IMG/VR virus record: IMGVR_UViG_3300045988_006728
Direction: 5' to 3' (one strand)
Source of the DNA: a virus
Lineage: Duplodnaviria; Heunggongvirae; Uroviricota; Caudoviricetes
Length of the DNA stretch: 64,000 bases
Shown here: piece after piece, positions 1 through 45,910 of the stretch
Layout of the letters: each line of letters begins with the position of its first letter
Numbering within the stretch: the first letter of the stretch is position 1
The notes under the pieces: model-generated
The model's input: only the letters and a program-made list of their open reading frames with translations
Told to the model about the DNA's origin: nothing
The model's database searches: none
Translations under genes and position numbers: made by a program

Positions 1-190
1 TTAAAAAAGTTGTTGACAAAGTACTTGACAAGGTGTAGGCTTCTAAATACTTAGAAGATAACTTAAAAGGTTCCTCTAAAAAGGCTATTTAAACAGATAT
101 CTTTCTGGATATCTATCTTTTATCTTAAAAGCCTTTTAAGAGGTCTTATAAGAGGCATACCAATGAAAAACAGAACAAACAAAGGCCAGT
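1..190. repeat. Tandem direct repeat, copy 1 (190-bp unit)
   Basis: Positions 1-190 are identical to 191-380; the unit carries two TTGACA hexamers, palindromes CTTCTAA-ATAC-TTAGAAG and AGATATC-N6-GATATCT, and the first 12 codons of the ORF at 353. Confidence 0.9.
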
Positions 191-389
191 TTAAAAAAGT
201 TGTTGACAAAGTACTTGACAAGGTGTAGGCTTCTAAATACTTAGAAGATAACTTAAAAGGTTCCTCTAAAAAGGCTATTTAAACAGATATCTTTCTGGAT
301 ATCTATCTTTTATCTTAAAAGCCTTTTAAGAGGTCTTATAAGAGGCATACCAATGAAAAACAGAACAAACAAAGGCCAGTTTAAAAAAG
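191..389. repeat. Tandem direct repeat, copy 2 plus 9-nt start of a third copy
   Basis: Exact repetition of 1-190; sequence diverges after ttaaaaaag at 381-389. Confidence 0.9.
203..243 (+). promoter_or_regulatory. Sigma70-like promoter with duplicated -35 (TTGACA-N6-TTGACA); identical copy at 13-53
   Basis: TTGACA at 203-208 and 215-220 inside the conserved 12-mer CTTGACAAGGTG; the -10 region is weak (TAGGCT/TACTTA). Confidence 0.4.
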
Positions 390-724
390 GCCAATCTGGA
401 AACCCATCTGGAAGACCAAAAGGCTCTCGTAACAAAAGCTCACTTGTAAAAGCTCAACTGACCATTGATAATTCTGCTGAGTTTGCTGCAAAACTGTTTG
501 AGGCGATTGTTACAAGAGATGCTGCTAAGCTTGCAGAGTTCGGGTTAAACACAGACGACGTAACCATCAAGAGCATGATTGAGGTCGGTAAAACTATCAT
601 GACTCACTCAGCAGGTGAGATGAAAGCGATTGCAGCAGACACTAAGAAGACACCTGATAATGGTGGTCAGTCTCAGACAGATAACAAACCAACGTTCTCT
701 GCTGTAGCGATTCTCAAAAAATAA
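353..724 (+). CDS. Hypothetical basic protein with N-terminal Gly/Pro/Arg-rich motif (GNPSGRPKGSRN)
   Basis: 123-aa ORF; its start codon and first 12 codons lie inside the tandem repeat. Confidence 0.5.
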   Translation: MKNRTNKGQFKKGQSGNPSGRPKGSRNKSSLVKAQLTIDNSAEFAAKLFEAIVTRDAAKLAEFGLNTDDVTIKSMIEVGKTIMTHSAGEMKAIAADTKKTPDNGGQSQTDNKPTFSAVAILKK

Positions 725-736
725 TTTTAAAAGGTG

Positions 737-771
737 TTGACAGACTCTACAAAGTTGCTCTAAAGTCTGTC
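737..771 (+). promoter_or_regulatory. Promoter overlapped by an 8-bp inverted repeat (GACAGACT-N17-AGTCTGTC)
   Basis: TTGACA at 737-742; perfect inverted repeat 739-746/764-771 spans the spacer and -10 region upstream of the ORF at 807. Confidence 0.45.
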
Positions 772-806
772 ACATCAACAAACAAAATGAGAGAAGAGAG
801 TAAAAT

Positions 807-2222
807 ATGAGCGAATTATTCAAACATGCGCACCTTCATGCAGGTCGAACTGAAAATGGTGCTGTAAACCATACTTCATCAATGTCTGCTCTTGTAGACT
901 TTTACAAAGCTGCTGGTTCAAGCCGTAGCAACGTAGAAATCTTACCAGACCTGTTCTACAAAGCTTTGCGTGAGGATGTTGATGTTGCAGTTCGTATTTT
1001 GCTTCATATGCGAGATGTACGAGAAGGTATGGGTGAGCGTAAAGCCTTCAGAACTGTTTTACTTCAAGCGATTGAAGACAAAGTTTTAGAGCCTACGCAG
1101 GTTCTTCGCATTATGGATAAGATTGCAGAACTTGGTCGTTTTGATGACTTCAAAATCTTCGTAGGTACTCGTTTCGAGACAGATGCCTTCAAACATCTAG
1201 AAGCAGCATTACTAGACCCTGCAACAGCAGGTTTGGCGGCTAAGTGGTTACCACGAGTCAAACCACGTCATAAGCAGTTTGTAAAACGTTTCTGCAAGTT
1301 TGCCAACTTGAGTGAGAAAGAGTACCGCACACTGTTGTCTGCACTATCTGATACAGTTGAGCAAAAAATCTCTGCTAATGAGTTTGGTAAGATTGACTAC
1401 AGTAAGATTCCTTCACTTGCTGCTGCACGTTACCAAAAACTGTTTAACCGCAAAGATGGAGAACGCTACAAAGCTTACATCGAGTCCTTATCAAAGGGTG
1501 AGGCTAAGATTAATGCTGGTGCTGTTTACCCATACGATGTAATTAAATCTGTTAAGCATGGTAATGCAGATGTTGCTAATGAGCAGTGGAAAGCACTACC
1601 AAACTGGATGGCAGAGGGTGAAAACATCTTGTGTATGTCTGATGTTTCAAGCTCAATGTCTTGGGTGAATTTTGGTTCAATTACTGCTCTTGATATTGGT
1701 GTTTCACTTGCATTGTATGTAGCAGAACGTAATACAGGTTGCTTTAAGAATGAGTTGATGGTTTATTCAACAAACCCTCACTTCATCGAACTGAGTGGTG
1801 ATTTACGAAACCGTAATCGTCAGGTGATGCGACACGTTGAATATGGCTCAACTAACTTACAAGCAGCTTTTGACCGCATTCTTGAGATAGGTAAGAGAAA
1901 CAACTTGACTCAGAAAGATATGCCAAGTAAGCTTATCATCTTCTCCGATATGGAGTTCAATCAGGTTGATGGGGCTAACGGTCGTACAAACTTTGAAGCA
2001 ATTCAGAGTAAGTACAAAAAAGCTGGATACGAAATGCCTCAACTGGTATTCTGGTACTTAGCAAACCGTAATGGTACTTGCGAAGTGTCTGTTAAGGATA
2101 ACGGTGTAGCAATGGTATCTGGTTTTTCTCCAGCTACTTTAAAAGCTCTGCTTGGTGGTGAGAAGTTTGACCCAATCAGCGTAATGCTCAAAGCAGTAAT
2201 GATTGACCGTTATATCTGGTAA
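807..2222 (+). CDS. vWA-domain protein with MIDAS motif (D-V-S-S-S); possible TROVE/Ro60-like RNA-binding protein
   Basis: 471-aa ORF; DxSxS at ILCMSDVSSSMS about residue 276 with hydrophobic beta-strand context; helical N-terminal domain beginning TENGAV...LVDFYKAAGS, loosely like the Ro60 N-terminus as recalled. Confidence 0.45.
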   Translation: MSELFKHAHLHAGRTENGAVNHTSSMSALVDFYKAAGSSRSNVEILPDLFYKALREDVDVAVRILLHMRDVREGMGERKAFRTVLLQAIEDKVLEPTQVLRIMDKIAELGRFDDFKIFVGTRFETDAFKHLEAALLDPATAGLAAKWLPRVKPRHKQFVKRFCKFANLSEKEYRTLLSALSDTVEQKISANEFGKIDYSKIPSLAAARYQKLFNRKDGERYKAYIESLSKGEAKINAGAVYPYDVIKSVKHGNADVANEQWKALPNWMAEGENILCMSDVSSSMSWVNFGSITALDIGVSLALYVAERNTGCFKNELMVYSTNPHFIELSGDLRNRNRQVMRHVEYGSTNLQAAFDRILEIGKRNNLTQKDMPSKLIIFSDMEFNQVDGANGRTNFEAIQSKYKKAGYEMPQLVFWYLANRNGTCEVSVKDNGVAMVSGFSPATLKALLGGEKFDPISVMLKAVMIDRYIW

Positions 2223-2237
2223 AAAGTTTTAAAAAGG

Positions 2238-2275
2238 GTATTGACAATGTGTTTGATACCCTTTAATATGTTCTA
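2238..2275 (+). promoter_or_regulatory. Sigma70-like promoter (TTGACA-17-TAATAT)
   Basis: Good -35/-10 match with 17-bp spacer upstream of the tRNA array. Confidence 0.5.
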
Positions 2276-2330
2276 CATAGAAACGAAACGAGAGCTTTTC
2301 TAAGATACTGAAAAATATTTTAAAAAAGTT

Positions 2331-2368
2331 CTTGACAATCACTAAAAAATAATGTTAAAGTGGTTACA
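2331..2368 (+). promoter_or_regulatory. Sigma70-like promoter (TTGACA-17-TTAAAG)
   Basis: Second promoter in tandem directly upstream of the first tRNA. Confidence 0.4.
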
Positions 2369-2387
2369 TAGAGTTTGAAAAGTTTAT

Positions 2388-2464
2388 CTCTGTTTAGCTC
2401 AGCTTGGTAGAGCGTTCCGTTTGGGGCGGTAAGGCCGGAGGTTCAAGTCCTCCAACAGAGACCA
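2388..2464 (+). tRNA. tRNA-Pro (anticodon TGG)
   Basis: Acceptor ctctgtt/aacagag, D-arm gctc-agcttggta-gagc, T-arm ggagg-ttcaagt-cctcc, anticodon loop tttgggg, encoded CCA. Confidence 0.7.
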
Positions 2465-2471
2465 AATTAAT

Positions 2472-2549
2472 GTTCCAGTAGACAAAATGGTAAAGTCACC
2501 ACTCTTTCAAAGTGGATATCTGAGGGTTCAAATCCCTTCTGGAACGCCA
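2472..2549 (+). tRNA. tRNA-Glu (anticodon TTC)
   Basis: Acceptor gttccag/ctggaac, anticodon stem ccact/agtgg with loop ctttcaa, T-loop ttcaaat, CCA. Confidence 0.7.
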
Positions 2550-2556
2550 GTTTTGA

Positions 2557-2628
2557 CAGAAGACCAATTACAGCAAACTTAATCTACTCATCTGACACGA
2601 AATCGGACAAAGAAGATATTTGGTCTGG
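2557..2628 (+). ncRNA. Structured inter-tRNA element, unit 1 (A box CAGAAGACC ... B box GGTCTGG); candidate Y RNA-like stem-loop
   Basis: AGACC of the A box pairs with GGTCT of the B box; conserved TaCAGCAA follows the A box; same framing repeated at three other sites. Confidence 0.35.
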
Positions 2629-2639
2629 TCATTGAGAAT

Positions 2640-2716
2640 TGCGGGTATAGAGAAAGGGCGTCTCACATGTCTCATTAGCATGGTATCGGCAGGTTCGACT
2701 CCTGCACCCGCCTCCA
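2640..2716 (+). tRNA. tRNA-Met (anticodon CAT)
   Basis: Anticodon stem catgt/gcatg with loop ctcatta, T-arm gcagg-ttcgact-cctgc, CCA; first acceptor pair mismatched and position 37 is T. Confidence 0.55.
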
Positions 2717-2722
2717 ATTTTG

Positions 2723-2782
2723 CAGAAGACCGTATTCAGCAACAAAATACTTTTTGCGGATAAAAGAAAAAACACGGTCTGG
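2723..2782 (+). ncRNA. Structured inter-tRNA element, unit 2 (A/B box framed)
   Basis: CAGAAGACCgtaTtCAGCAA at 2723 and GGTCTGG at 2776; the inner helix shows compensatory changes relative to unit 1. Confidence 0.35.
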
Positions 2783-2793
2783 CAATGTATTAA

Positions 2794-2870
2794 GGTTAGG
2801 AAGCACATAAGGTATGTGCGGTCGCCTGTTAAGCGAATGGCACAGGGTTCGAATCCCTGACTAACCGCCA
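2794..2870 (+). tRNA. tRNA-Asn (anticodon GTT)
   Basis: Anticodon loop ctgttaa, T-arm caggg-ttcgaat-ccctg, acceptor 3' strand actaacc, CCA. Confidence 0.65.
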
Positions 2871-2879
2871 AATTTAAAT

Positions 2880-2967
2880 GTGTCGTTATCCCGTAGATGG
2901 TAGCGGTGGGGACTGTAAATCCCTTGTCATTGAGACTCGGTAGGTTCGACTCCTACACGGCACACCA
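2880..2967 (+). tRNA. tRNA-Tyr (anticodon GTA), class II with long variable arm
   Basis: 88 nt; anticodon stem gggga/tccct with loop ctgtaaa; T-arm gtagg-ttcgact-cctac; CCA. Confidence 0.65.
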
Positions 2968-2972
2968 ATAAA

Positions 2973-3050
2973 GGTTATGTAGTTTAATTTGGTTAAAATA
3001 CTCCCCTGTCACGGGAGATGATGAGGGTTCAAATCCCTTCGTAACCGCCA
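2973..3050 (+). tRNA. tRNA-Asp (anticodon GTC)
   Basis: Anticodon stem ctccc/gggag with loop ctgtcac; T-loop ttcaaat; CCA. Confidence 0.65.
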
Positions 3051-3111
3051 ATTTTGAGAGGGCTATTTAGCCCCTCCCTTAAAGGGTTCTTACGAGTATC
3101 CTTTAAAGGAG

Positions 3112-3184
3112 CAGAAGACCAAATACAGCAAGAACGTATGAAATTTCAAGCCAATTTAATTTTGAAAATTTAAACTTGGTCTGG
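3112..3184 (+). ncRNA. Structured inter-tRNA element, unit 3a (A/B box framed)
   Basis: CAGAAGACCaaaTaCAGCAA at 3112 and GGTCTGG at 3178. Confidence 0.35.
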
Positions 3185-3197
3185 CTCAACAAATTTA

Positions 3198-3329
3198 CAG
3201 AAGACCGTTTACAGCAAAACTTAAACAATCTATTTCTCCGGTAAAGAAAAGGCGAAGGTTCGATTCCTTCACTCGGCAGATGTCGAGTTGGTGTAATGGT
3301 AGCACTTAAGATGATAAACAACGGTCTGG
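3198..3329 (+). ncRNA. Structured element, unit 3b, with internal tRNA-mimic domain; candidate YrlA-like Y RNA
   Basis: A box at 3198 and B box at 3323 frame a T-arm (gaagg-ttcgatt-ccttc, 3254-3270), a 7-bp acceptor-like helix closed by a 4-nt loop (actcggc-agat-gtcgagt, 3271-3288) and a D-arm (gtg-taatggtag-cac); there is no anticodon arm. Confidence 0.4.
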
Positions 3330-3330
3330 T

Positions 3331-3474
3331 AATTATCTTTGTAGATAAGTTATTAAGCTTACCTGTGAGTATGCGACCACAAAGGGTGAAAGGGTAAATT
3401 CTAGATTTAAACCCAAAAAGGCACATCGCTACAGACCTTAAGCAAGTCTGGGTAGCTTATCTACAAAGATAATT
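3331..3474 (+). repeat. Perfect 19-bp inverted repeat (AATTATCTTTGTAGATAAG) flanking a 106-bp structured segment
   Basis: 3331-3349 is the exact reverse complement of 3456-3474; the interior holds further hairpins (cagac-N8-gtctg); ends 4 nt before tRNA-Lys. Confidence 0.6.
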
Positions 3475-3478
3475 TAAT

Positions 3479-3554
3479 GGAAGTGTAGCAGAATGGTGAT
3501 GCGGCAGACTTTTAATCTGACAGGCGATGGGTTCGAATCCCTCCACTTCTACCA
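3479..3554 (+). tRNA. tRNA-Lys (anticodon TTT)
   Basis: Anticodon loop cttttaa, D-loop aatggtga, T-loop ttcgaat, acceptor ggaagtg/cacttct, CCA; paralog of the tRNA at 5201. Confidence 0.7.
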
Positions 3555-3558
3555 ATAT

Positions 3559-3635
3559 GGTTCAGTCGCAGATAAGGTAATGCAGGGGTCTCATAAGCCC
3601 TATGAATGTGGGTTCGATTCCCATCTGAACCTCCA
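3559..3635 (+). tRNA. tRNA with anticodon CAT (Met, fMet or Ile2)
   Basis: Perfect acceptor ggttcag/ctgaacc, anticodon loop ctcataa, T-loop ttcgatt, CCA. Confidence 0.7.
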
Positions 3636-3636
3636 A

Positions 3637-3712
3637 GCTGGTATAGTTAAGAAGGTTATAACACTCCCCTGATAAGGGAACATCGGTGGTTCGATTCCAC
3701 CTACCAGTACCA
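3637..3712 (+). tRNA. tRNA-Ile (anticodon GAT)
   Basis: Anticodon loop ctgataa, T-arm ggtgg-ttcgatt-ccacc, CCA. Confidence 0.7.
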
Positions 3713-3723
3713 ATTTCAATAAA

Positions 3724-3759
3724 GTTGTTGACATTGAGATGTGACTACTTTATAGTAAC
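3724..3759 (+). promoter_or_regulatory. Sigma70-like promoter (TTGACA-17-TATAGT)
   Basis: Strong -35/-10 match; followed by about 230 nt of structured non-coding sequence before tRNA-Arg. Confidence 0.5.
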
Positions 3760-3987
3760 CTTAGTTTTCGTTGCGTAGCGTCTATTTTGCAAATTTAAAA
3801 TAAATGCAAACGACAATGTTTTTCTGGCAGTAGCTTGATAGGCTAAACACCAGTGAGGTCTTCCAATCCCTCATCAAAGAATTTGGCGTACTCGCCCACG
3901 GTATGATTAATAATGTGGGCAACACTCTAAAGGGTATCCCTTATGGGTCTTGGCTTAAATGCAATAAGTACCCTTTAAAATGTTAAT

Positions 3988-4064
3988 GCACCCTTAGTTC
4001 AATTGGATAGAGCAACGGTCTTCTAAATCGTTAGTTACAGGTTCGAATCCTGTAGGGTGTGCCA
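3988..4064 (+). tRNA. tRNA-Arg (anticodon TCT)
   Basis: Anticodon stem acggt/atcgt with loop cttctaa; T-loop ttcgaat; acceptor gcaccct/agggtgt; CCA. Confidence 0.7.
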
Positions 4065-4207
4065 ATTTAGTTAGCAGATTGCTTAGACGACCTTATCGGG
4101 TCTCCGTGTAAGGAGGTGGTCTGTATCTCATGTTTTCCAGAACATGTAAATAATCTGAGAAGGTGCTTTACAGTGTTGAGATAATACGGTAAGCTTCGAA
4201 TTATAGT

Positions 4208-4290
4208 GTGGGACGATGTTAAGACTCTAAGGCATGAGCAACGGCCTCCAAAACCGTTTCAAAGTGGTTCAACTCCTCCGTCCCATGCCA
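4208..4290 (+). tRNA. Atypical tRNA-like gene, anticodon loop ctCCAaa (Trp?), 8-bp acceptor helix
   Basis: 8-bp helix gtgggacg/cgtcccat, discriminator G, CCA and T-loop ttcaact are present, but the D-region is about 8 nt too long for a canonical fold. Confidence 0.35.
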
Positions 4291-4303
4291 AAGTCTTATT
4301 AGG

Positions 4304-4393
4304 GGTAGGTAGCGGCTAATGGTAGCCAAACTGTCTTGAAAACAGTTGCCACTGTAGAGATACGGTGAGGGTTCGACTCCTTTACTTACCGCC
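4304..4393 (+). tRNA. tRNA-Ser (anticodon TGA), class II
   Basis: 90 nt; anticodon stem actgt/acagt with loop cttgaaa; long variable arm; T-loop ttcgact; discriminator G; only CC of CCA encoded. Confidence 0.65.
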
Positions 4394-4662
4394 TAATAAG
4401 ATTTAAAGCCAAGCTTCATTCGGATGTTGCTTTGGTATCCCTCGTGTATTGTCGTACACGCACAGTAAAGCACCTAGTAGGTGTCACGGAGAAGAGATAA
4501 TATCAAGCTCTCCAAAGGTTCTAGTCACCGGATTAAACAAGACTATGCAAAGACCTTTTTAGGTCTTTTTAGAGGGCTTCTAAGGTTATTACAGCTTGTT
4601 GTGGAACCTTGTTGCTTAGGTTCTTAGAAGTTCTCTAAAAAGATTTAATGGGAGATTGACAT

Positions 4663-5115
4663 ATGGCACGTAGCAGTTTGACTAAAGATATTCTTGAACC
4701 TTTAGTAAAGGGTTCAGTATCATTCAGAGAAGTGCTTATAAAGCTTGGGAGAAAACCATCAGGTGGTTCTCAGTCACATCTAAAGCGTGTTATAGAGAAG
4801 TTTGAAATAGACACTTCTCATTTCCTCGGACAAAAGGCTGGTAAGATTAAAACTGTACCAAAAAGAAAGCCTGAAGAAATCTTAATTCTACGTGAATCTG
4901 GTGAAAGAGCAAGGTCTTCACAACTAAGAAGAGCTTTAATAGCATCTGGTATCGAATACAAATGCTCTAAATGCGGTCAGTTACCGGAGTGGTTGGGCAA
5001 CCCTCTAACTCTTGATGTTGACCACATTAATGAGAACTGGTTAGATGATAGAAAAGAGAATCTTCGGTTCTTATGTCCAAATTGCCACAGTCAATTCTCA
5101 AGGCATTTGATTTAA
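4663..5115 (+). CDS. HNH homing endonuclease inside the tRNA array
   Basis: 150-aa ORF with C-terminal HNH signature DVDHINENW...RFLCPNCHSQ; stop codon lies 2 nt before the next tRNA. Confidence 0.7.
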   Translation: MARSSLTKDILEPLVKGSVSFREVLIKLGRKPSGGSQSHLKRVIEKFEIDTSHFLGQKAGKIKTVPKRKPEEILILRESGERARSSQLRRALIASGIEYKCSKCGQLPEWLGNPLTLDVDHINENWLDDRKENLRFLCPNCHSQFSRHLI

Positions 5116-5116
5116 T

Positions 5117-5193
5117 GCACCTATAGCCCAACTGGTAGAGGCAGCAGACTTAGAATCTGCTCAGTGTGAGTTCGAATCTCTCTAGGTGTACCA
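5117..5193 (+). tRNA. tRNA with anticodon TAG (decodes Leu CUA) but class I, short-variable-arm fold
   Basis: Acceptor gcaccta/taggtgt, anticodon stem gcaga/tctgc with loop cttagaa, T-loop ttcgaat, CCA; variable arm only 5 nt. Confidence 0.55.
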
Positions 5194-5200
5194 AATTAAT

Positions 5201-5276
5201 GCAGGTGTAGCAAAATGGTTATGCGGCTGACTCTTAATCAGTAAGACGATGGGTTCAATTCCCTCCACCTGTACCA
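5201..5276 (+). tRNA. tRNA-Lys (anticodon CTT)
   Basis: Paralog of tRNA-Lys(TTT) at 3479 with a compensatory change in the anticodon stem; loop ctcttaa; CCA. Confidence 0.65.
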
Positions 5277-5282
5277 GACATT

Positions 5283-5358
5283 GGGGATGTAGTTTACATG
5301 GTTAAAACATAAGTTTTGCAAACTTAAGTACAGGGTTCAATTCCCTGCTTCTCCACCA
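5283..5358 (+). tRNA. tRNA-Ala (anticodon TGC)
   Basis: G3-U70 wobble pair in the acceptor stem (ggggatg/cttctcc), anticodon loop tttgcaa, T-arm caggg-ttcaatt-ccctg, CCA. Confidence 0.7.
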
Positions 5359-5364
5359 ATTAGT

Positions 5365-5439
5365 GCATCCATAGTTTAAACGGGAAAATTACAGTCTTCC
5401 AAACTGAGGTTGAGGGTTCGAGTCCCTTCGGATTCTCCA
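5365..5439 (+). tRNA. tRNA-Gly (anticodon TCC), acceptor stem imperfect
   Basis: Anticodon loop cttccaa, T-arm gaggg-ttcgagt-ccctt, CCA; two mismatches in the acceptor helix. Confidence 0.5.
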
Positions 5440-5477
5440 AGTTATTTTACTCTCTCTCAATTAAAATAATAATAATG

Positions 5478-5528
5478 CCCTGCTATAAGTATTCTTCCTT
5501 TCGCTACCGAAGAGTATTTTTAGACAGG
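5478..5528 (+). terminator. Hairpin plus T-run at the end of the tRNA array
   Basis: gccctg...cagggc followed by tttttt. Confidence 0.35.
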
Positions 5529-5661
5529 GCTTTTTTACAGAGTTATACTTTATAGGAAGACTTATACAGTATGTCTCTGACGTACATTGTGGTTTCTCCT
5601 TGACGGTCTCTGTGCCGTCTTTTTTAAGGGGAAACATGGTTAATTATTTGGAGAAAACATA

Positions 5662-5862
5662 ATGAGTGAGACCGTTTACAAAGAACTTTATGAAGCTAAT
5701 AAAAAGCTAGAATTTATGCAGAACACTATCATGGCAATTGCAGATAGATTATCTGTAGCAACAGGTATTGATATTAAAGAAGCATCTATGGATGCACTTC
5801 TTGATGCTGTTGATGCAAAGTTCGAAGTTAAGAAAGAAGAGACTGCTACAGACTCTGAATAA
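5662..5862 (+). CDS. Hypothetical small protein upstream of the large terminase (small terminase role unproven)
   Basis: 66-aa ORF tightly coupled to the terminase gene. Confidence 0.35.
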   Translation: MSETVYKELYEANKKLEFMQNTIMAIADRLSVATGIDIKEASMDALLDAVDAKFEVKKEETATDSE

Positions 5863-5883
5863 TTCTATTTGCGGAGGCGCTTA

Positions 5884-7485
5884 ATGGACTTAAATGCTGT
5901 TAAGCAGAAGCGAGTGGAAGATGTTAGGAAAGTCCTAGCTGGAGAGTTGGGGCTTTCTGATGAAGTAAAAGAAATTATTAAATCATTCGGTAAAGACCCC
6001 TCTAAATTCCTTCCAACTCAAATTCTGACTTTATTAAGATACACACCAGACCAAGTTCGCCTTATCTTTAAATTGATGACTGATAAGAACTATGTAGCCC
6101 CTCAGCCGGGTTCTCAAGAGGTCTTTTTAAATACTAATGCTGACTTGGTTCTCTATGGTGGTGCTGCTGGTGCTGGTAAGACTGCCGCATTGTTAATGGA
6201 CTCTTTAAGATTTATTGAAGACCCTAACTATAATGCTGTATATTTCCGTCGAAATACAACACAGTTACAAGGTGGTTTATGGCCTGCTGCAAAGAAACTA
6301 TTTGGTAAGTTTGGTGGGATTCCTCACGAGCAGAAAATGACTATCACATTCCCTTCTGGGGCAACTATCAAGTTTACCTACCTAGAACTTGAAAAGCACG
6401 CTGAAGGTCATCAGGGTATTGAATACTCAGCTATTTACTTTGACGAAGGTACACACTTCTCTGCTTCACAGATTTCATACCTACAAACCCGTCTACGTTC
6501 TGGTGCTGAAGGCGATTCATACATGAAGATTTCCATGAACCCAGACAGAGACCACTTTATTTACGATTGGGTAGAGCCATTCTTAGATGAAGAAGGCTAC
6601 CCAGACCCTGAAAAATGTGGTCGTATTCGTTGGTATGTAATGAACGATGGCGTGATGGTTTCTGATTGGGAGAGAGACAAGATTCTTGAAATGTTCCCCC
6701 TTGAGATTCCTCAAACATACACCTTTATTTCTGGTACGATTGATGATAACCCAATCCTTGACTTCTTAGAGCCTAAGTACCGTGGTAAGCTGGAAAACAA
6801 CACTCCTTTAAACGTTGCAAGACTTCGTTTCGGTAACTGGAAGGCTCGTGCAGAAGGTTCAAACTATTGGCAAAGACAATGGTGTGAAATTGTTGATTCA
6901 CTCCCAGAAGATGTATTTGATGTTAGAGCATGGGACTTAGCAGCAACTTTACCATCTGAGATTAACCCTAATCCAGACTGGACAGCAGGTGTTAAGATGG
7001 GTAAATCTAAAAAAGACGGTTGCTATTATATCATTGATGTAGTAAGATTTAGAGATAGACCCTCTGGAGTCGAAACACAAATTAATTTGACTGCTGAAAG
7101 TGACGGTAAGCGAACTGGTATTTTTATCCCTCAAGACCCAGGCGCTGCTGGTAAATCCTACGCAACATCCCTCATCAGGAAACTTGCCGAGAAAGGTTAT
7201 CGAGCAAGAGCCAAACCAACAAATAAAGATAAAGTTACCCGCTTTGCGGGATTTTCTGCTGCTTCTGAAGCTGGACTTGTAAAAGTCTTGAGAGGTAGTT
7301 GGAATGAAGCTTACTTTCAAGAGCTTGAAGGCTTTTGTGGTGATGGCAAAACTAAAGATGACCAAGTGGATGCTACCAGTGATGCTTTCAACAGTCTTAA
7401 CGAAGTTAAATTATTCAAGCCACCATCAATGGGCGCTCACACAGACTTAGTGAGGGGAAACCCATATGAGGGGCTTAGACGTTGA
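5884..7485 (+). CDS. Terminase large subunit
   Basis: Walker A LYGGAAGAGKT and a C-terminal nuclease-like region; GGAGG RBS before ATG at 5884 (the track ORF begins at 5869). Confidence 0.8.
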   Translation: MDLNAVKQKRVEDVRKVLAGELGLSDEVKEIIKSFGKDPSKFLPTQILTLLRYTPDQVRLIFKLMTDKNYVAPQPGSQEVFLNTNADLVLYGGAAGAGKTAALLMDSLRFIEDPNYNAVYFRRNTTQLQGGLWPAAKKLFGKFGGIPHEQKMTITFPSGATIKFTYLELEKHAEGHQGIEYSAIYFDEGTHFSASQISYLQTRLRSGAEGDSYMKISMNPDRDHFIYDWVEPFLDEEGYPDPEKCGRIRWYVMNDGVMVSDWERDKILEMFPLEIPQTYTFISGTIDDNPILDFLEPKYRGKLENNTPLNVARLRFGNWKARAEGSNYWQRQWCEIVDSLPEDVFDVRAWDLAATLPSEINPNPDWTAGVKMGKSKKDGCYYIIDVVRFRDRPSGVETQINLTAESDGKRTGIFIPQDPGAAGKSYATSLIRKLAEKGYRARAKPTNKDKVTRFAGFSAASEAGLVKVLRGSWNEAYFQELEGFCGDGKTKDDQVDATSDAFNSLNEVKLFKPPSMGAHTDLVRGNPYEGLRR

Positions 7486-7492
7486 TAGCTAG

Positions 7493-8968
7493 GTGAGAAG
7501 AATGGCAGATATTACAGAAACACAAGAAAGCTTACCACCATTTAGGATGGGTGAAGTAGGTTCTTTGGGTCTGAAGGTTAAGAATGGAAGAATCTATGAA
7601 GAACCTCGTCAGGCACTAAGGTTCCCTGAAAGTATTAAAACTTTCCAATTAATGATGCGTGACCCCGCTGTAGCAGCATCTGTAAATATTATTAAGATGT
7701 TTGTCAGAAAAGTCAACTGGAGATTCGTACCTCCAAAGGGAAAAGAGCAAGACCCTAAAATGCTTGAAAGAGCAGACTTCTTTAATTCTTTAATGGATGA
7801 CATGGAGCATGATTGGGCAGATTTTATTAACTCTGTAATGTCATTCTGCACTTATGGGTTCTGTGTTAATGAAAAGGTTTATAAGAAGCGTCAGGGTAAG
7901 AAAGGAAAGTACCAGTCTAAATTTGATGATGGTCTAATTGGATGGGCTAAATTACCAATCAGAAACCAATCAACACTTGATAAGTGGTATTTTGACGAAG
8001 ACTTTAGAAAAGTTACTGGTGTTAGACAGAATCTGAGAAATGTTTCACATATTGCTGGAGCAATTAATCTTGGAGAAAGACCACTAACAAGAAAACTCCC
8101 ACGAGCTAAATTCATGCTGTTTAAGTATGACGATGAATATGGAAACCCAGAAGGTCGTTCACCATTACTTAATGCCTATGTGCCGTGGAAGTATAAAGTT
8201 CAGATTGAAGAGTACGAAGCAGTCGGTGTTTCAAGAGACTTGGTAGGTATGCCAAAAATTGGTTTACCACCAGATTATCTGGATGAAAATGCAGAACCTG
8301 AAAAGAAAGCTTTCGTACAATACTGCAAAACTGTTGTTAACGATATGATTGCTAATGATAGAGCAGGTTTAATCTGGCCTAGATATATCGACCCAGATAC
8401 TAAAGAGGATATTTTTGAGTTCTCATTAGTTTCTAGACAGGGTGCTAAAGCATACGATACAGGTTCTATTATTGACAGATATTCCAAGCAGATTATGATG
8501 GCATTTATGTCAGATGTTCTTGCTATGGGTCAGTCAAAATATGGTTCATTCTCTCTTGCAGATTCTAAGACAAGCTTACTAGCAATGTCAGTAGATATTC
8601 TGCTGAAGCAAATTAAGAACGTAATTAACCGTGATTTAGTTGCACAGACTTATGCTCTTAATATGTGGGACGATGAAGAACATGTGCAAATCACATATGA
8701 TGATATCGAAACCCCAGACCTTGAAGTAATTGGTTCTTATATCCAGAAGACTGTTGCAGTAGGTGCTTTGGAAGTTGACAAAGAGCTATCTAACAAGCTT
8801 AGAGAGCATATTGGTCTTCCTCCTGCTGATGAGTCTCAGCCAGTATCTGAAAAGCTTTCTCCAAATAGCCAAAGCCGTTCAGGAGATGGTTATAAGACCG
8901 CTGGAGAAGGTACTGCAAAGACACCTTCAGCGAAAGACCCAAGCACAGCAAATAAGGCAAATAAATAA
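7493..8968 (+). CDS. Portal protein
   Basis: 491-aa ORF immediately after the terminase, acidic/Gly-rich C-terminus; call rests on position and size. Confidence 0.6.
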   Translation: MRRMADITETQESLPPFRMGEVGSLGLKVKNGRIYEEPRQALRFPESIKTFQLMMRDPAVAASVNIIKMFVRKVNWRFVPPKGKEQDPKMLERADFFNSLMDDMEHDWADFINSVMSFCTYGFCVNEKVYKKRQGKKGKYQSKFDDGLIGWAKLPIRNQSTLDKWYFDEDFRKVTGVRQNLRNVSHIAGAINLGERPLTRKLPRAKFMLFKYDDEYGNPEGRSPLLNAYVPWKYKVQIEEYEAVGVSRDLVGMPKIGLPPDYLDENAEPEKKAFVQYCKTVVNDMIANDRAGLIWPRYIDPDTKEDIFEFSLVSRQGAKAYDTGSIIDRYSKQIMMAFMSDVLAMGQSKYGSFSLADSKTSLLAMSVDILLKQIKNVINRDLVAQTYALNMWDDEEHVQITYDDIETPDLEVIGSYIQKTVAVGALEVDKELSNKLREHIGLPPADESQPVSEKLSPNSQSRSGDGYKTAGEGTAKTPSAKDPSTANKANK

Positions 8969-14612: not shown

Positions 14613-15965
14613 ATGTGGAATCCAATTGTTAATGTAGATATTACATTGAACACCGCAGGAACTACAAGAGAAGGTTTTGGTTTGCCACTATTCTTAGCTT
14701 CAACAGATAACTTTGAAGAAAGAGTCCGTGGTTACACTTCCTTAACTGAAGTTGCTGAAGATTTCGATGAAAACTCTGCTGCATATAAGGCTGCTAAACA
14801 ACTTTGGAGTCAGACTCCTAAAGTAACTCAGCTTTATATTGGTAGACGTGCTATGCAGTACACTGTATCAATTCCTAATGCCGTTGCTGAAAGTACAGAC
14901 TACTCAATTACTGTAGCTGCTGGCGGTGGAATTTCTCAACCATATCAGTATACAGCGCAAGCTGAAGACACTGCTGAAAACGTGTTGCAACAGTTTAAAA
15001 CACAGATTGAAGCTGACCCAACAATCAAAGATAAGGTTTCTGTGAACGTAACTGGTAGCAATGGCTCTGCCACAATGATTATTACCAAAGCTGGTGATAA
15101 TGACTTTGTGAAAGTAACAACTACAGCACAGACTGTGTATATTGCAAGTACAACTGCCGATACAGCATCAACTGCTCTGGCAGCTATCGAAGCTTACTCT
15201 ACTGACTGGTATTTCATTGCAGCAGAAGACAGAACTCAACAGTTTGTCTTAGCAATGGCTTCTGAGATTCAGGCTCGCAAGAAAATCTTCTTTACAGCTA
15301 ACTCCGATGTAACAGCCCTGCAAGGTACAGAATTAGCCAGTGCAAATGATGTTCCAGCACAGCTTGCTAAGAGTATGTACACTCGTACAGTTTGCTTGTG
15401 GCATCACGCAGCAGCAGAAGACTACCCAGAGATGGCATACATTGCTTATGGTGCTCCATATGATGCAGGTTCAATTGCTTGGGGTAATGCTCAGCTAACT
15501 GGTGTAGCAGCTTCTCTACAACCATCTAATCAGAGACCTCTGACAAGTATTCAGAAGTCTGCTTTAGATGTACGTCACTGTAACTTTATTGACCTTGATG
15601 GTGGTGTTCCAGTGGTTCGTAGAGGGATTACTTCTGGTGGGGAATGGATTGATATCGTCCGTGGCGTTGACTGGTTAGAATCAGACCTGAAAACTTCTCT
15701 GAGAGACTTGCTAATTAACCAGAAGGGTGGTAAGATTACTTATGATGATACTGGTATTACCCGTATTCGTCAAGTCATTGAAACCTCTCTACAAAGAGCA
15801 GTCAACAGAAACTTCCTGTCATCTTACACAGTTAATGTTCCTAAAGCCTCTCAAGTTGCTTTGGCAGACAAGAAAGCTCGTATCCTGAAAGATGTTACCT
15901 TCGCAGGTATCTTAGCAGGGGCTATCTTGGATGTTGACTTGAAAGGTACAGTGGCTTACGAATAA
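14613..15965 (+). CDS. Tail sheath protein (putative)
   Basis: 450-aa ORF directly before a 148-aa tube-sized gene; a P2-like baseplate set downstream supports a contractile tail. Confidence 0.5.
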   Translation: MWNPIVNVDITLNTAGTTREGFGLPLFLASTDNFEERVRGYTSLTEVAEDFDENSAAYKAAKQLWSQTPKVTQLYIGRRAMQYTVSIPNAVAESTDYSITVAAGGGISQPYQYTAQAEDTAENVLQQFKTQIEADPTIKDKVSVNVTGSNGSATMIITKAGDNDFVKVTTTAQTVYIASTTADTASTALAAIEAYSTDWYFIAAEDRTQQFVLAMASEIQARKKIFFTANSDVTALQGTELASANDVPAQLAKSMYTRTVCLWHHAAAEDYPEMAYIAYGAPYDAGSIAWGNAQLTGVAASLQPSNQRPLTSIQKSALDVRHCNFIDLDGGVPVVRRGITSGGEWIDIVRGVDWLESDLKTSLRDLLINQKGGKITYDDTGITRIRQVIETSLQRAVNRNFLSSYTVNVPKASQVALADKKARILKDVTFAGILAGAILDVDLKGTVAYE

Positions 15966-17141: not shown

Positions 17142-25157
<8,016 letters not shown>

Positions 25158-25159
25158 TA

Positions 25160-26347
25160 ATGGCGGTAGGTGAAATTCAAATTAGTGCCTTGCCTCAAGC
25201 AGCCTTACCAATTGACCTTAGTGATATCTTCCATCTTAAGCAGGGTATTGAGGATAAGAGATGTACTCTTGAGCAATTACTTGCTCCACACTCAAGCCTA
25301 AGAAATAACCCTCATGGTGTTACTAAAACACAAATTGGTTTAGATAACGTTATCAATGCTCTTCAGTTAGTTGCTGCAAATAACTTATCAGACGTTACTA
25401 ATGTAGCTCAGGCAAGAGCAAATCTACAGATTATGTCTTCAGAAGAGGTTAATAATCTTGTTCAACAGCATATTCAGGACAAGAGCAACCCACATAATAC
25501 AACTAAGGTACAGGTAGGATTGAGTAATGTTCAGAACTGGACAACATCTAACCTTTATAACGAAGATGCAGATAAGTATGCTACAGCAAGAGCAGTAAAT
25601 AACTTGTACAAGGCTGTTCAGGCTTCCTATCCAGTAGGTACTATCCATCTTTCCATGAACTCTGCAAACCCTTCTACATATTTAATTTGTGGAGGAACTT
25701 GGGAGTTAGTTTCAAAAGGTAGAGCATTGGTTGGTTATGACTCTGATACAAGACCAACAGGCTCTGTATTTGGTGCTTCAACTGTCACTTTGTCAGTTAA
25801 TAACATGCCACAACACTCACACTCTGTGTCTCTTAGTGGTGGTGGTCACACCCATAATGCAACGGTGTCAATTTCAGCTTTTGATTATGGAACTAAGACT
25901 ACCAACTCTTTTGACTATGGAACAAAGACCACTAACACGACTGGTAACCACAACCATGTGGGCAGTGGGTCAACAAATGCGGCTGGTGCTCACAACCATA
26001 GATTGACCTATGAAGCAGGTGGTGGTTTATCGGAAAGACCTGCAATGGTTTGGTCTACAAGGAATGACCAATCATGGTACTCAGCAGATGCTGTCTGTGA
26101 AGTCGCTGGTTCACACACTCACTCTTTCAGTGTTACCACTAACACGACTGGTAACCACAGCCACACGGTTGGTATTGGTGCTCACAGCCACACGGTTGGT
26201 ATTGGTTCACATACACACAATGGTACTGTAACAGTTTCTTCTTCTGAGCATACGCATAGCGGGAACACTAACAGTATTGGTGGTGGACAAGCTTTTAACA
26301 TTGAGCAGCCATCCTTCGTACTGTATGTATGGCAGAGAACAGCTTAA
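25160..26347 (+). CDS. Tail fiber protein with His-X-His repeat tip domain
   Basis: 395 aa; repeated HTHS/HSHT motifs and in-frame tandem DNA repeats; C-terminal motif shared with the next gene. Confidence 0.65.
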   Translation: MAVGEIQISALPQAALPIDLSDIFHLKQGIEDKRCTLEQLLAPHSSLRNNPHGVTKTQIGLDNVINALQLVAANNLSDVTNVAQARANLQIMSSEEVNNLVQQHIQDKSNPHNTTKVQVGLSNVQNWTTSNLYNEDADKYATARAVNNLYKAVQASYPVGTIHLSMNSANPSTYLICGGTWELVSKGRALVGYDSDTRPTGSVFGASTVTLSVNNMPQHSHSVSLSGGGHTHNATVSISAFDYGTKTTNSFDYGTKTTNTTGNHNHVGSGSTNAAGAHNHRLTYEAGGGLSERPAMVWSTRNDQSWYSADAVCEVAGSHTHSFSVTTNTTGNHSHTVGIGAHSHTVGIGSHTHNGTVTVSSSEHTHSGNTNSIGGGQAFNIEQPSFVLYVWQRTA

Positions 26348-26393: not shown

Positions 26394-28781
26394 ATGGCAG
26401 ATTACAAGTTGAGTGAATTAAACTCAATCAATACAATCCGTTCAGATGACCTTCTTCATGTCAGAGTTAAAAAGAGACCTGAAATGCTGGGTGATGAAGA
26501 CCGTCGAATGACCTATCAAGACTTCTTAGCATCTTTTAAACTTGAAAGGTTTGTTCAGATTGCTGGTAGCACTATGACGGGTGACTTAGGAATTGTTAAG
26601 TTACTTTATGGTGGTAAGGTAGTATTTAACCCAACAGGCTCTTCTGAGATTACTATTGGGGATGTTTTAAAGACTTTTAAAATCAACGCAAACGGCCTTA
26701 GATTAACTATTGCAGATGCTTCAAGGTCGGCAACTGTTTATCATACTCTGAATAAGCCAAGCCCTAATGAGCTTGGGATGAGAACTAATGAAGAGAATGA
26801 TGCAAGATATGCAAGGTTGGCTGTAAATAACACCTTTAGAGGCACTCAAGCTATTCTCTCTGACAATGAAGCTCTTATTGCTAAGAATATTACACAAGGG
26901 ATGCCACTCTATATTCGTGGTCAAGATGCAGATGGTACTAACAGGTGGTATCTAGGTAATGATAACAAGGGTACAGACAATCTTGTTTTAAAAAACGTTA
27001 AATCTGGTGCATATGTAGCTATTTTAGCTAACCTAATCTCCGTGAACAAATCAATCCAAATCACTGGGCAAGTTCAACCTTCTGATTGGACTAACTTAGA
27101 TGCTAGGTATTTTACTCAGACAGCAGCTAATCAGAGGTTTGCACAGTTAGCTGGTAATAATACCTTTAGAGGCGTGAATACATTTAATCAAATCCTATCA
27201 ATTAAGACGAATAGTGCAGCCTTAAGGTTAAAAAACACTGTAGCTAATGGTGCACTGTACATTAAAGCCGAAGCTAATGATGGCTCTGGTAAGTGGTATG
27301 TAGGTAATGGTGATAATACACCTGCTGTATTAATCCACAACTATACGTATGGTTCTAATCTTAGACTCGACAATGGTTATGTTGAGGTTAATAAGCAACT
27401 TAAAGTCGTTGGTCAAGTTCAACCTTCTGATTGGACTAACATTGACTCTAGATATATTCCGGCAGGAACTTTGAGTAATCTTGCCAAGCTGAGTGATGCA
27501 AACACTTTCAGGTCTACACAGGTTATCAATCTGAATGGCTCATTGTTACAGCTAAAGAACACTACACAAGACAGAGAGCTTTACTTTGCTGGCCATAATG
27601 CTGATGGTGTTAGAAGGTGGTACATCGGTAATGGGGAACCATCCAACCCAACAAGATTTACTATCCGCAACGACAGAACTGCAACTACGCTTTATATGCA
27701 AGACGATTTCTTGTTGGATAAAACTGTCAGAATTACTGGTCAAGTTCAACCTTCAGATTTCTCTAACTTAGATGCTAGATATTTCTTAAAAACAAAACTG
27801 TTAAACCAATCTTTAATGACAAGGACAGCTAATAGACTGGATGACCCATCATCATTCAACAAAGATTGTTCAGGGTTTGTAAGAAACAACGCTATTGAGC
27901 AGGGTCTGAAAGATTTAGCCATCCATGTAGCACATTCTGCTGGTATTGCTCATGCCAGAGGTATTGCTTTTACATATGGGTCTAAAGGTCTTGATGTCTT
28001 CACATACGCTTATGGGTCAGATGGAGCATATGTTGGAGAGGCACAGTTGTATTCAACGGCATTTAAACCAACCCCTTCAGGTATTGGTGCATATACTAAA
28101 GCTGAAACTGACCAGAAGATTGCACAGGCAGTAAGTGACTCTACAGACCTTAATAAAATCTATCCAGTAGGTATTGTGACATGGTTTAACAGCAATGTTG
28201 ACCCTAATACAGCACTTCCTGGTCTAACTTGGACGTACCTGAACAATGGTGTTGGTAGAACTATCAGAATTGCAGCAGCAAACGGTTCAGATGTTGCTAC
28301 AACTGGTGGTTCAGATTCTGTAACGTTATCTGTTGGCAACTTACCATCACACACCCATAGTTTCTCTGCTACCACTTCATCTTTTGATTATGGTACGAAG
28401 AACACTAATAGCACTGGTGGTCATACTCACTCTGTAAGTGGCACAACAAGTGCTGCTGGTAAACACGCTCACCACTTAGGTCTGCTATTGGTTAATGGTG
28501 GTGATGCTCAGTACGGTTATACAACTGTTAGCAATAACAAGACGAGAACTCTTGACTGGCTTGACAGAACTGATAACAAGTTCCCTAACACTAACACAAC
28601 TGGTAACCATACACACACATGGTCTGGTACTACAAGTAACACTGGTGCTCACACCCACTCTGTAGGTATTGGTGCTCACACCCATACAGTTAGGGGTAAC
28701 ACTGGTGGTACAGGTTCTGGTTCAGCATTTAGTGTCACTAACCAGTTCTACAAGTTGATGGCTTGGGTGAGAACTGCTTAA
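26394..28781 (+). CDS. Long tail fiber protein with three internal repeats and His-X-His tip domain
   Basis: 795 aa; three roughly 100-aa repeats each containing NTFR...DG..RWY.GN...QVQPSDW(F)...LD(A/S)RY; C-terminal HTHS repeats. Confidence 0.7.
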
Positions 28782-35760: not shown

Positions 35761-36324
35761 TCAACTTAGTTTTGCAAACTCTCCGTGGAGTTTAATAGCA
35801 GCTTCACAGTAAGCTTTATGGGCTTCTTCTGGTGTGTCAAACATACCAAGATGATAGTTTTTACCTTGTAAACGTATCATTGCTCGAAACCTTTTACTTA
35901 TCTTCTGTACACCTTTTGGCAACCCAGATGGGGACTTTCTTGACCGATTGCAAGAGTTTTGTGAAGCTGTACAAACCCTTAAATTCAAGTACCTATTGTC
36001 CCAACCGTCCCCATTCTTATGGTCAACCTGTAAGTTTTTATCAGGCAGGTATCCATCCACATATAGTATTGCTAGACGGTTAGCTTGGTAGCCTTTACCA
36101 TCAAGCAATAACTGAACAGACTTGTGACCATCTGTGTTTATCCTATAATTTCCTGCCTTTTTACCTCCAAAACGAGAGTTGAAGTTCTTATTGCCTCGTG
36201 ATACCGGCTCTCTAAACTTCCAAGTAAAGACCCCTGTTTCGGGGTCGTAGTCCAATAGCTCCTTAAGACGAATTTCTGTAATCATTTCAACACCATCAAT
36301 GTACTTCCAACCAGCTCTTACCAA
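35761..36324 (-). CDS. HNH homing endonuclease with AP2-type DNA-binding domain
   Basis: 187 aa; HNH region QVDHKNGDGWDNRYLNLRVC...N.CN; overlaps the 3' end of the polymerase gene by 29 nt; paralog of 45864-46388. Confidence 0.7.
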   Translation of the reverse strand: MVRAGWKYIDGVEMITEIRLKELLDYDPETGVFTWKFREPVSRGNKNFNSRFGGKKAGNYRINTDGHKSVQLLLDGKGYQANRLAILYVDGYLPDKNLQVDHKNGDGWDNRYLNLRVCTASQNSCNRSRKSPSGLPKGVQKISKRFRAMIRLQGKNYHLGMFDTPEEAHKAYCEAAIKLHGEFAKLS

Positions 36325-38995: not shown

Positions 38996-39054
38996 TTTTA
39001 CTCCCTCTAAAATCATTAACCTCATACATTACTGCAAAAAATTATAAAAAGCAA

Positions 39055-39095
39055 GTTGACAATGCACTTGACAAGGTGTTAATCTTTGCGAAGTG
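39055..39095 (+). promoter_or_regulatory. Promoter with duplicated TTGACA and conserved CTTGACAAGGTG 12-mer in a divergent AT-rich control region
   Basis: Same TTGACA-N6-TTGACA architecture as in the terminal repeat; ACTTAAAAGGTT motif follows at 39106. Confidence 0.45.
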
Positions 39096-39252
39096 GGTTT
39101 TTACTTAAAAGGTTACTTAACAGTTTAACTATACAGATACTTTAAAACTCTTAAAAGATTATTTAATAGCTTTTAAAAAGCTTTAAAGTATAACGTATAG
39201 AATACGTTAAGATAAAAGATTAAAACTTAATAGTTACTTAAAAGAGGCTTAC

Positions 39253-44863: not shown

Positions 44864-45910
44864 ATGGAGAAGTACACATTAACAAAACTTCCCGATTCAG
44901 TTACACATGTTTTTATTGACTCTGACAGTATTGCCTATAAAGGCGCTTGTGTAGTTGAGAAAGCAAAATATAAATATGTCAATAAACTCACAGCAGAAGA
45001 ATCTGAATCATTTGATAATGCAAAAGATGCTGCAAGATGGTTAGCAGACCAGAGAATCCTTGTGGAAGAGCTTGGCCTGACATTTGATGAAGATGAATGG
45101 GAAAGACAGACTTGGAAAGAAGCTAAGAGTGAAAAAGAAGCTATCATGGCTACTCAACAGGTGCTTCAGGAATGGCTTAAGATTGTTGGTAAAGAGAGAA
45201 CTTGGGTAGGTTATTTAACAGAGAAAGGTGTGCATAAACATAAAGACATTAAAGGTCTTGAGCACCAATATCAAGGTAACCGCAAAGATGCTGTCACACC
45301 AACACACTTAGTTGCTTGTCGTGAGTATCTTCTGTCAAGACCAGAGTTTAAATTGATTCTTGATGGATTTGAAGCTGACTCTATCGTTATCGCTAAAGCT
45401 GAAAAGATGGGAAAAAAGGCTGCCTTAATGAGTATTGATAAAGACCTTCGCCAAGCTGAAGGTACTTACTGCATTGATATGACCTATGAAAAATCACCTT
45501 TAATTTTCATTGCTGATAACAACGTTGGTGAAATTTGGGATTGTCCAATAAAATCGACACCAAAAGCTAAGAAGACAGTTGGTGTAGGTTTTAAATTTCT
45601 TTGTTATCAAGCTGTGGCTGGTGATAATGCGGATAATTACTTTGGTTTAAAGGGTGTTGGCAAAGCTGCTGTGATGAAGGCTCTTGAAGGGAAAACAACT
45701 TACAAAGAGTGTCTTGATGCAATTTACGAGCTATATGCTAAGAAAGACTCCTACACTTATGTATCATGGGATGGTCAAACAATTACCAGAACACCTTTAG
45801 AATTAATGCAGCAACACTTTTTCTTAGCTTATCAGGAAAGAAATAAAAAAGACGATTTTACTTTTGATAAGTATGGGTGGACACCAAATGTTAACTCAAC
45901 AAACTCTTAA
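44864..45910 (+). CDS. RNase H / flap endonuclease-like 5'-3' exonuclease
   Basis: 348 aa; segments HVFIDSDSIAYKGA and GFEADSIVIA...MSIDKDL resemble the T4 RNase H acidic clusters as recalled. Confidence 0.5.
   Translation: MEKYTLTKLPDSVTHVFIDSDSIAYKGACVVEKAKYKYVNKLTAEESESFDNAKDAARWLADQRILVEELGLTFDEDEWERQTWKEAKSEKEAIMATQQVLQEWLKIVGKERTWVGYLTEKGVHKHKDIKGLEHQYQGNRKDAVTPTHLVACREYLLSRPEFKLILDGFEADSIVIAKAEKMGKKAALMSIDKDLRQAEGTYCIDMTYEKSPLIFIADNNVGEIWDCPIKSTPKAKKTVGVGFKFLCYQAVAGDNADNYFGLKGVGKAAVMKALEGKTTYKECLDAIYELYAKKDSYTYVSWDGQTITRTPLELMQQHFFLAYQERNKKDDFTFDKYGWTPNVNSTNS

Follow-up and report, generated by a model that had tools for sequence, protein, structure and literature searches.

A probable isolate-specific tandem duplication of a conserved 190-bp rightward control region at the start of a Felixounavirus genome record

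The window analysed here, a 64,000-nt stretch of the virus record IMGVR_UViG_3300045988_006728, opens with two identical, adjacent copies of a 190-bp control region that is single in the relatives inspected. We consider a real tandem duplication, carried by all or some of the sequenced DNA, to be the probable explanation, and the event was apparently a recent one within one lineage of Felixounavirus. The duplicated unit comprises an A-tract, two TTGACA boxes, a conserved leader of ~100 nt with a nested hairpin, a ribosome binding site (RBS) and 12 codons of the gene that follows. In relatives, the single unit is bracketed on both edges by the 9-mer TTAAAAAAG, and the copies in the window meet on this same 9-mer. 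The event belongs to a well-known class, the microhomology-mediated tandem duplications of phages, and is new only as an instance of it.

TRF reported an exact tandem array at positions 1-389, with a period of 190, 2.0 copies, 100% matches, no indels and a score of 778. Direct comparison revealed that 1-199 equals 191-389 exactly and that identity ends at precisely 199 nt (2.05 copies), and a repeat search of the window recovered 1-190 and 191-380 as head-to-tail copies with 100% identity. The layout is thus 9mer-181-9mer-181-9mer, with TTAAAAAAG at 1, 191 and 381 (Table 1). A sequence-only reading of this DNA had described an exact 190-bp tandem duplication followed by 9 nt of a third copy, and both TRF and the direct comparison agree with it. 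The sub-features that it listed within the unit (a TTGACA pair, two palindromes, AT-rich motifs and the first 12 codons of the downstream gene) are all present in the sequence. Because the gene at 353 has its first 12 codons inside the duplicated segment, copy 1 yields the truncated 21-codon ORF that was also claimed, as opposed to the full 123-codon ORF. Apart from the array, the 64 kb contain no long exact repeat, and the remaining repeat families are at most 70 nt long and diverged.

Table 1. Features of the 190-bp array and of related loci (window coordinates).
Feature	Position	Strand	Remarks
Unit, copy 1	1..190	+	Rightward promoter boxes, leader, RBS and first codons; 100% identical to 191-380
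Unit, copy 2	191..380	+	Predicted to drive the intact gene at 353; collinear with the single copy of relatives
Microhomology 9-mer TTAAAAAAG, first occurrence	1..9	+	A-rich tract 5' of the first TTGACA; left unit edge in relatives
Microhomology 9-mer TTAAAAAAG, copy 1/copy 2 junction	191..199	+	Novel junction consists of base 190, the 9-mer and bases 200 onward
Microhomology 9-mer TTAAAAAAG, right edge	381..389	+	Codons Phe-Lys-Lys of the gene at 353
Novel copy 1/copy 2 junction sequence			GGCCAGTTTAAAAAAGTTGTTGACA
Left-edge sequence of the unit			ATTGCAAGTTAAAAAAGTTG
Right-edge sequence of the unit			CCAGTTTAAAAAAGGCCAATC
Double -35-like box, TTGACA-N6-TTGACAAGGTG	13..35 (copy 1), 203..225 (copy 2)	+	
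Palindrome CTTCTAA-ATAC-TTAGAAG	40..57, again 230-247	+	Overlaps AATACT (46-51), the -10 annotated in relatives, with a 15-nt spacer
Nested inverted repeat/leader hairpin	73..143, again 263..333	+	Outer arms CCTCTAAAAAGGC and GCCTTTTAAGAGG
Truncated 21-codon ORF, MKNRTNKGQFKKVVDKVLDKV	163..228	+	ATG at 163; RBS AAGAGG at 150-155; TAG stop inside the copy-2 promoter boxes
Intact gene, Felix O1 gene-41 homologue, DUF5681	353..724	+	123 aa; Pfam PF18932, E = 2e-14; phrog_4114
Large terminase gene	5869-7485		
Paralogous promoter module, TAAAAAG..GTTGACAATGCACTTGACAAGGTGT ... ACTTAAAAGGTT	39045..39122	+	Outside the duplication

The window belongs to Felixounavirus, the Felix O1-like myophages, with 96-98% identity over 3 kb and 20 kb to many phage records; the matching records are of Escherichia, Salmonella and Shigella phages. 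The unit forms the rightward half of a divergent intergenic region located 5' of the Felix O1 gene-41 homologue, which encodes a DUF5681 protein. Downstream of this gene follow, in order, a vWFA/DUF2828/DUF7788 protein (named "RNA-binding protein" in PHROGs), 15 tRNA genes, an HNH endonuclease ORF and the large terminase. The tRNA cluster extends from 2388 to 5439 and is split by the HNH endonuclease ORF (4663-5115), and it includes weak tRNA-like remnants, for example at 3221-3271. An Rfam search of positions 1-6000 detected the tRNA cluster only, with no match inside the 190-bp unit.

The DUF5681 protein has the N-terminal motif KGQSGNPSGRPKG and gave no match in a PDB sequence search or in NCBIfam. 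Look-ups with the exact DUF5681 and vWFA protein sequences retrieved no record of either. No small terminase subunit was identified among the examined ORFs upstream of the large terminase. A 66-aa ORF (5662-5862) lies directly before the large terminase. Speculatively, either this ORF or the DUF5681 protein, which might be small-terminase-like, could be a candidate for the small terminase. Further into the window, the ORF at 25160-26347 contains short in-frame tandem repeats with periods of 27-30 (at 25878-25936 and 26149-26218), and a 795-aa ORF (26394-28781) contains three diverged 70-nt repeats spaced ~330 nt apart within 27043-27784. The repeats in these two ORFs probably correspond to repeated domains of tail or fibre proteins. 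A 68-nt inverted repeat (36220-36287 and 45886-45953) is 75% complementary and has its arms 9.6 kb apart.

With positions 1-389 as the query, we retrieved 253 matching phage records, 251 of which covered it. All 60 of the matches listed show a single-copy footprint of 199 bp, equivalent to one unit plus the 9-mer. Among the same matches, VpaE1 and JLBYU32 are 100% identical to the unit and have it in single copy. The left edge in relatives (boundary marked by a slash) reads ...ATTGCAAG/TTAAAAAAGTTG..., or, with flank and 9-mer separated, ...ACTATTGCAAG/TTAAAAAAG/TTGTTGACA...; the right edge reads ...CCAGT/TTAAAAAAGGCC..., or ...GGCCAGT/TTAAAAAAG/GCCA... when the 9-mer is set apart. In the comparison with these single-copy relatives, homology to the duplicated segment begins at position 1 of the window. 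The earlier claim that the window starts exactly at a unit boundary therefore holds more strongly than it was made, as the first duplicated base can be judged from relatives.

The copy 1/copy 2 junction is the sequence that distinguishes two units from one. We probed for it with a 34-mer centred on the novel junction, each half of which is below the megablast word size. This probe had no match among 50,697 phage records, and a matched control 34-mer over the normal right-hand edge was found in 208 phage records. Exact junction patterns likewise had no match in IMG/VR, JGI metagenomes or GTDB genomes. The suggestion that this is a copy-number-variable region thus found no support in the comparison: the unit is single in the 60 relatives listed, from ~250 matching records, and the junction occurs in no public collection searched.

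We propose that the ancestor had one 190-bp segment between two 9-mers, TTAAAAAAG, as is the case in every relative inspected. One of these ancestral 9-mers would have been in the A-rich tract 5' of the rightward promoter and the other within the first gene, at codons 10-12. Replication slippage or unequal recombination involving this pair would have generated the arrangement with three 9-mers and two 181-nt intervals. The array has the features of a T4-type microhomology duplication, in that the units are identical and head to tail, a short repeat flanks them, and the junction is new relative to relatives. In T4, segmental amplifications are bounded by 6-10 bp of microhomology, one copy of which is kept between neighbouring repeats (PMC9391042).

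The unit has perfect TTGACA hexamers, matching the sigma-70 -35 element, at 13-18 and 25-30, and again at 203-208 and 215-220 in copy 2. The second hexamer sits inside CTTGACAAGGTG (24-35). Exact matches to the twin box TTGACA-N6-TTGACAAGGTG occur in the window only at 13, 203 and 39056. Both hexamers are invariant in nine phages of three genera, and the trailing AGGTG varies in Mooglevirus and Suspvirus. A strict sigma-70 scan (spacer of 16-18 nt and a -10 with at least four of six matches) found no promoter inside the unit. The best -10 candidates are AATACT, with a 15-nt spacer, and TAGGCT, which is located 17 nt after the first box and has 3/6 matches. The palindrome that overlaps AATACT is perfect in the window, and this form is a minority allele: four aligned Felixounavirus relatives have CTTATAA, not CTTCTAA, and only VpaE1 and JLBYU32, among the matches listed, carry the perfect version.

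The ASO1A record has an annotated promoter at the position equivalent to window 25-51. Previously, a promoter of Felix O1, P41 (TTGACA-N15-TATAGG), was predicted in the intergenic region of genes 40 and 41, and the temporal control of the gene-41 transcription unit was called not understood (Whichard et al. 2010, PMC3185647). The presence of a promoter in the unit is thus supported indirectly, by conservation, by position and by the annotation with its 15-nt spacer. Where the sequence-only reading saw a promoter/operator module, the promoter part stands on the boxes and leader, which are near-invariant in three genera, on a paralogue at 39.05 kb, and on the P41 and ASO1A annotations.

Downstream of the boxes, the leader contains a nested inverted repeat, inside which are AGATATC-N6-GATATCT at 95-114 (285-304 in copy 2) and CTTAAAAG-C-CTTTTAAG at 124-140. 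RNA folding of 248-365 returned a long hairpin with an MFE of -28.4 kcal/mol (z = -3.7 relative to shuffles). When nine phages from Felixounavirus, Suspvirus and Mooglevirus are aligned, 85 of 105 leader columns are invariant, and both of the internal elements are among the invariant sequences; the adjacent coding sequence is variable at 20 of 29 third codon positions. Across the three genera, the leader is therefore more conserved than the DUF5681 coding sequence next to it. As the leader is invariant, there is no covariation with which to test the hairpin, and the leaders of Erwinia and Hafnia Kolesnikvirus are too diverged for such a comparison. The leader may act as a DNA operator, as an RNA element or as both.

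The CTTAAAAG motif is present three times per unit. In the window as a whole this octamer occurs 20 times, compared with 5.3 expected, and none of 100 shuffles reached 20. It clusters in both divergent intergenic regions, for example at 62, 124, 133(-), 39104, 39150 and 39237. The terminal-repeat region of Ro111lw likewise has TTAAAAG-like motifs, which resemble CTTAAAAG.

The other divergent intergenic region of the window (39045-39252) separates a family A DNA polymerase gene (36296-39025, minus strand) from an ORF at 39253. It includes the paralogous promoter module, and ACTTAAAAGGTT is at an equal distance from the twin box in the unit and in this 39.05-kb module. Three CTTAAAAG motifs lie within 140 bp in this region, and the first TTGACA of the module has a good extended -10 (TGtTAATCT) 18 nt downstream. 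Two sites before the tRNA cluster, at 2230 and 2309, also consist of an A-tract followed by TTGACAA, and the one at 2309 includes the 9-mer TTAAAAAAG at 2320. Given that the twin box recurs at 39.05 kb and that A-tract-TTGACAA sites precede the tRNAs, the unit appears to represent a promoter type that this phage uses repeatedly. Both rightward transcription units begin with one and the same promoter architecture.

The relatives have a leftward promoter-like site (TTGACT-17-TACCAT) for a small leftward ORF, at a distance of 13 bp upstream of the unit. As this site is outside the unit, the duplication copies the rightward control region only. The ~90 nt directly upstream of the unit, which fall outside the window, are ~94% invariant across three genera (L001, MZ726791, 2905-3000). 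This segment of L001 includes the leftward promoter-like site with an RBS and the start of the small leftward ORF (~53-60 aa). The ORF is annotated in some records (e.g., Ro111lw 8423-8605) and absent from the ASO1A annotation.

The base that precedes the unit is G in relatives and T before copy 2 of the window, so the placement of the window is no coincidence and position 1 would be a contig start. Most likely, the window begins at the first base of the repeat because an assembled contig starts at position 1. When a genome assembles as a circle in a de Bruijn graph, the paths that enter a repeat meet at the (k-1)-mer whose first letter is the first repeated base, and this is the in-branch node. 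The array is the only repeat longer than the assembler k and would therefore be the branching node of the assembly graph. An assembler may also write a loop into the consensus although only part of the population, a minority variant, has it. Thus, some of the sequenced population may lack the duplication. Because an assembler cannot count copies beyond the read span, the copy number of the unit is at least two.

These properties of contig ends bear on whether the array could have been produced during assembly or finishing, either by joining or rotating a circular contig with an untrimmed end overlap or by unrolling a spurious loop. Artefacts concentrate at contig ends, which is where the repeat is, and the window starts on its first base; moreover, the two copies have zero divergence and the junction was seen in no relative inspected and in no public collection searched. 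However, the copies lie side by side at a single contig end rather than one at each end, and neither the period of 190 nor the repeat length of 199 nt matches a usual assembler k (odd values up to 127 or 141 in assemblers such as SPAdes and MEGAHIT). For a de Bruijn graph to contain such a loop, the reads must truly include the junction k-mers. If the overlap were arbitrary, only chance could have placed its end on a pre-existing 9-nt direct repeat, and the probability of a 9-nt match beyond the period is ~6e-6, which disfavours an untrimmed overlap. For the end-overlap form in particular, we judged the adjacent copies, the lengths of 190 and 199 nt and the edges on the pre-existing 9-nt repeat to make it unlikely. 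An artefact of some kind is an unlikely explanation overall, if one that deserves to be kept in mind. A reading of the array as a physical end of the genome, where a terminal repeat or a packaging start would reflect terminal redundancy, seems barely credible. The window does begin exactly at the repeat, the region is upstream of the terminase gene (5869-7485), and short terminal repeats do exist in Felix O1-type phages; a 613-bp direct terminal repeat was determined by PhageTerm for the Felixounavirus vB_EcoM-Ro111lw (PMC6454146). The two ends of MH571750, read directly, bear this out: record positions 1-613 are identical to 86338-86950. Homologues of this repeat occur twice in 27 records and are located at the record ends of MW481326, OR498728, OQ743992 and ON540300; the annotation of MW481326 names a short direct terminal repeat, and some MN850xxx records have a repeat_region. 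However, the direct terminal repeat of Felixounavirus, at ~580-613 bp, differs in sequence from the array, and its homologue is found 8.3-9 kb before the unit (ASO1A 15120-15710, compared with the unit at 24050), in a large convergent non-coding region outside the window. Terminal repeats occupy opposite ends of the molecule and are not head to tail, whereas the copies here are adjacent at 1-380, and the unit is internal in every record inspected. The proposal that the array could mark a genome terminus is thus contradicted by a genus-wide terminal repeat at another locus. The terminal-repeat region is itself full of short CTTGTTAG/CTGTTAAG-type repeats, and most GenBank records of Felixounavirus are not opened at the physical end.

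A further possibility, itself a sub-case of a real duplication, is an adaptive and copy-number-variable "promoter accordion" that was selected for higher downstream expression in the propagation host. Perfect 190-bp direct repeats are expected from established genetics to be unstable, yet one is present in the consensus. The unit amounts to a complete control module, cut away precisely from the leftward promoter, and the contig start leaves room for further copies. Phage amplifications selected under host pressure also share this junction structure (PMC9391042). On the other side, the relatives inspected, from ~250 matching records, show no change of copy number here, the duplicated segment is without a complete gene, and a neutral duplication can be fixed by a single plaque bottleneck. 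We therefore regard an accordion as improbable. Also quite improbable is a version in which the accordion is possibly still expanding and owes its selection to growth on some particular host or to a defence directed at tRNAs or translation. Neutrality, with fixation in a plaque bottleneck, appears at least as likely as adaptation.

If the tandem duplication is real, as we think probable, the phage would have a pair of identical promoters separated by 190 bp. Transcripts that start at the first of them would carry the 21-codon ORF as a decoy and read through copy 2. Transcription of the genes for the DUF5681 and vWFA/DUF2828 proteins, the 15 tRNA genes and possibly the packaging genes would then be equal or moderately higher. 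Most likely, the downstream unit would be expressed as before or at a moderately raised level. Were the accordion true, it would have raised the output of an ultra-conserved module, made up of the A-tract, the twin TTGACA boxes and the 70-nt nested hairpin leader, at the start of the DUF5681, vWFA/DUF2828 and tRNA (and packaging) unit. A duplication that is both real and selectable would offer a ready comparison of one unit with two for this control region. For users of the record, the implication is that an isolate-specific 190-bp duplication at the first base should be verified in the reads before it is taken for a biological feature, a genome end or a signal of completeness.

The single unit has a close counterpart in Felix O1 P41, with which it shares the intergenic position between genes 40 and 41, the -35 hexamer and, according to the ASO1A annotation, the 15-nt spacer. 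Unlike P41, which is itself a prediction, the putative promoter of the window is present twice, its candidate -10 is AATACT, and it has a second TTGACA and an A-tract upstream. The array is similar to the terminal repeats of Felixounavirus (613 bp in vB_EcoM-Ro111lw, ~581 bp in Pr103Blw) in being a short exact direct repeat in non-coding DNA. Those repeats, however, have another locus and sequence, occupy opposite ends of virion DNA and are genus-wide, whereas the 190-bp array is in one isolate. The terminal k-mer or overlap repeats left by assemblers are also exact and tied to a contig end. Unlike the array, they are found at two opposite ends, have a length equal to k or to the read overlap, and are unrelated to microhomology.

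In the poxvirus "gene accordion" (K3L amplification), a whole gene is expanded to many copies under demonstrated selection. An accordion in the window would resemble it as a transient gain in the copy number of a locus and a fast route to higher dosage. Unlike the poxvirus case, with a whole gene in many copies, it is the control region that is doubled here, and the doubling may equally be neutral. Close parallels are the duplications of T4, at rII and in the dmd-tifA amplification (Srikant et al. 2022, PMC9391042). As in T4, the units are head to tail and identical, and their boundaries fall on a short direct repeat that flanks the parental segment (6-10 bp in T4 and 9 bp here). The differences are that the 190-bp unit is without a complete gene (it has a promoter, a leader and 12 codons), that two copies are seen, and that Felixounavirus has fixed terminal repeats, unlike T4, which is a headful packager. 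If real, the array would be a clean natural example, outside T4, of duplication via a 9-bp microhomology.
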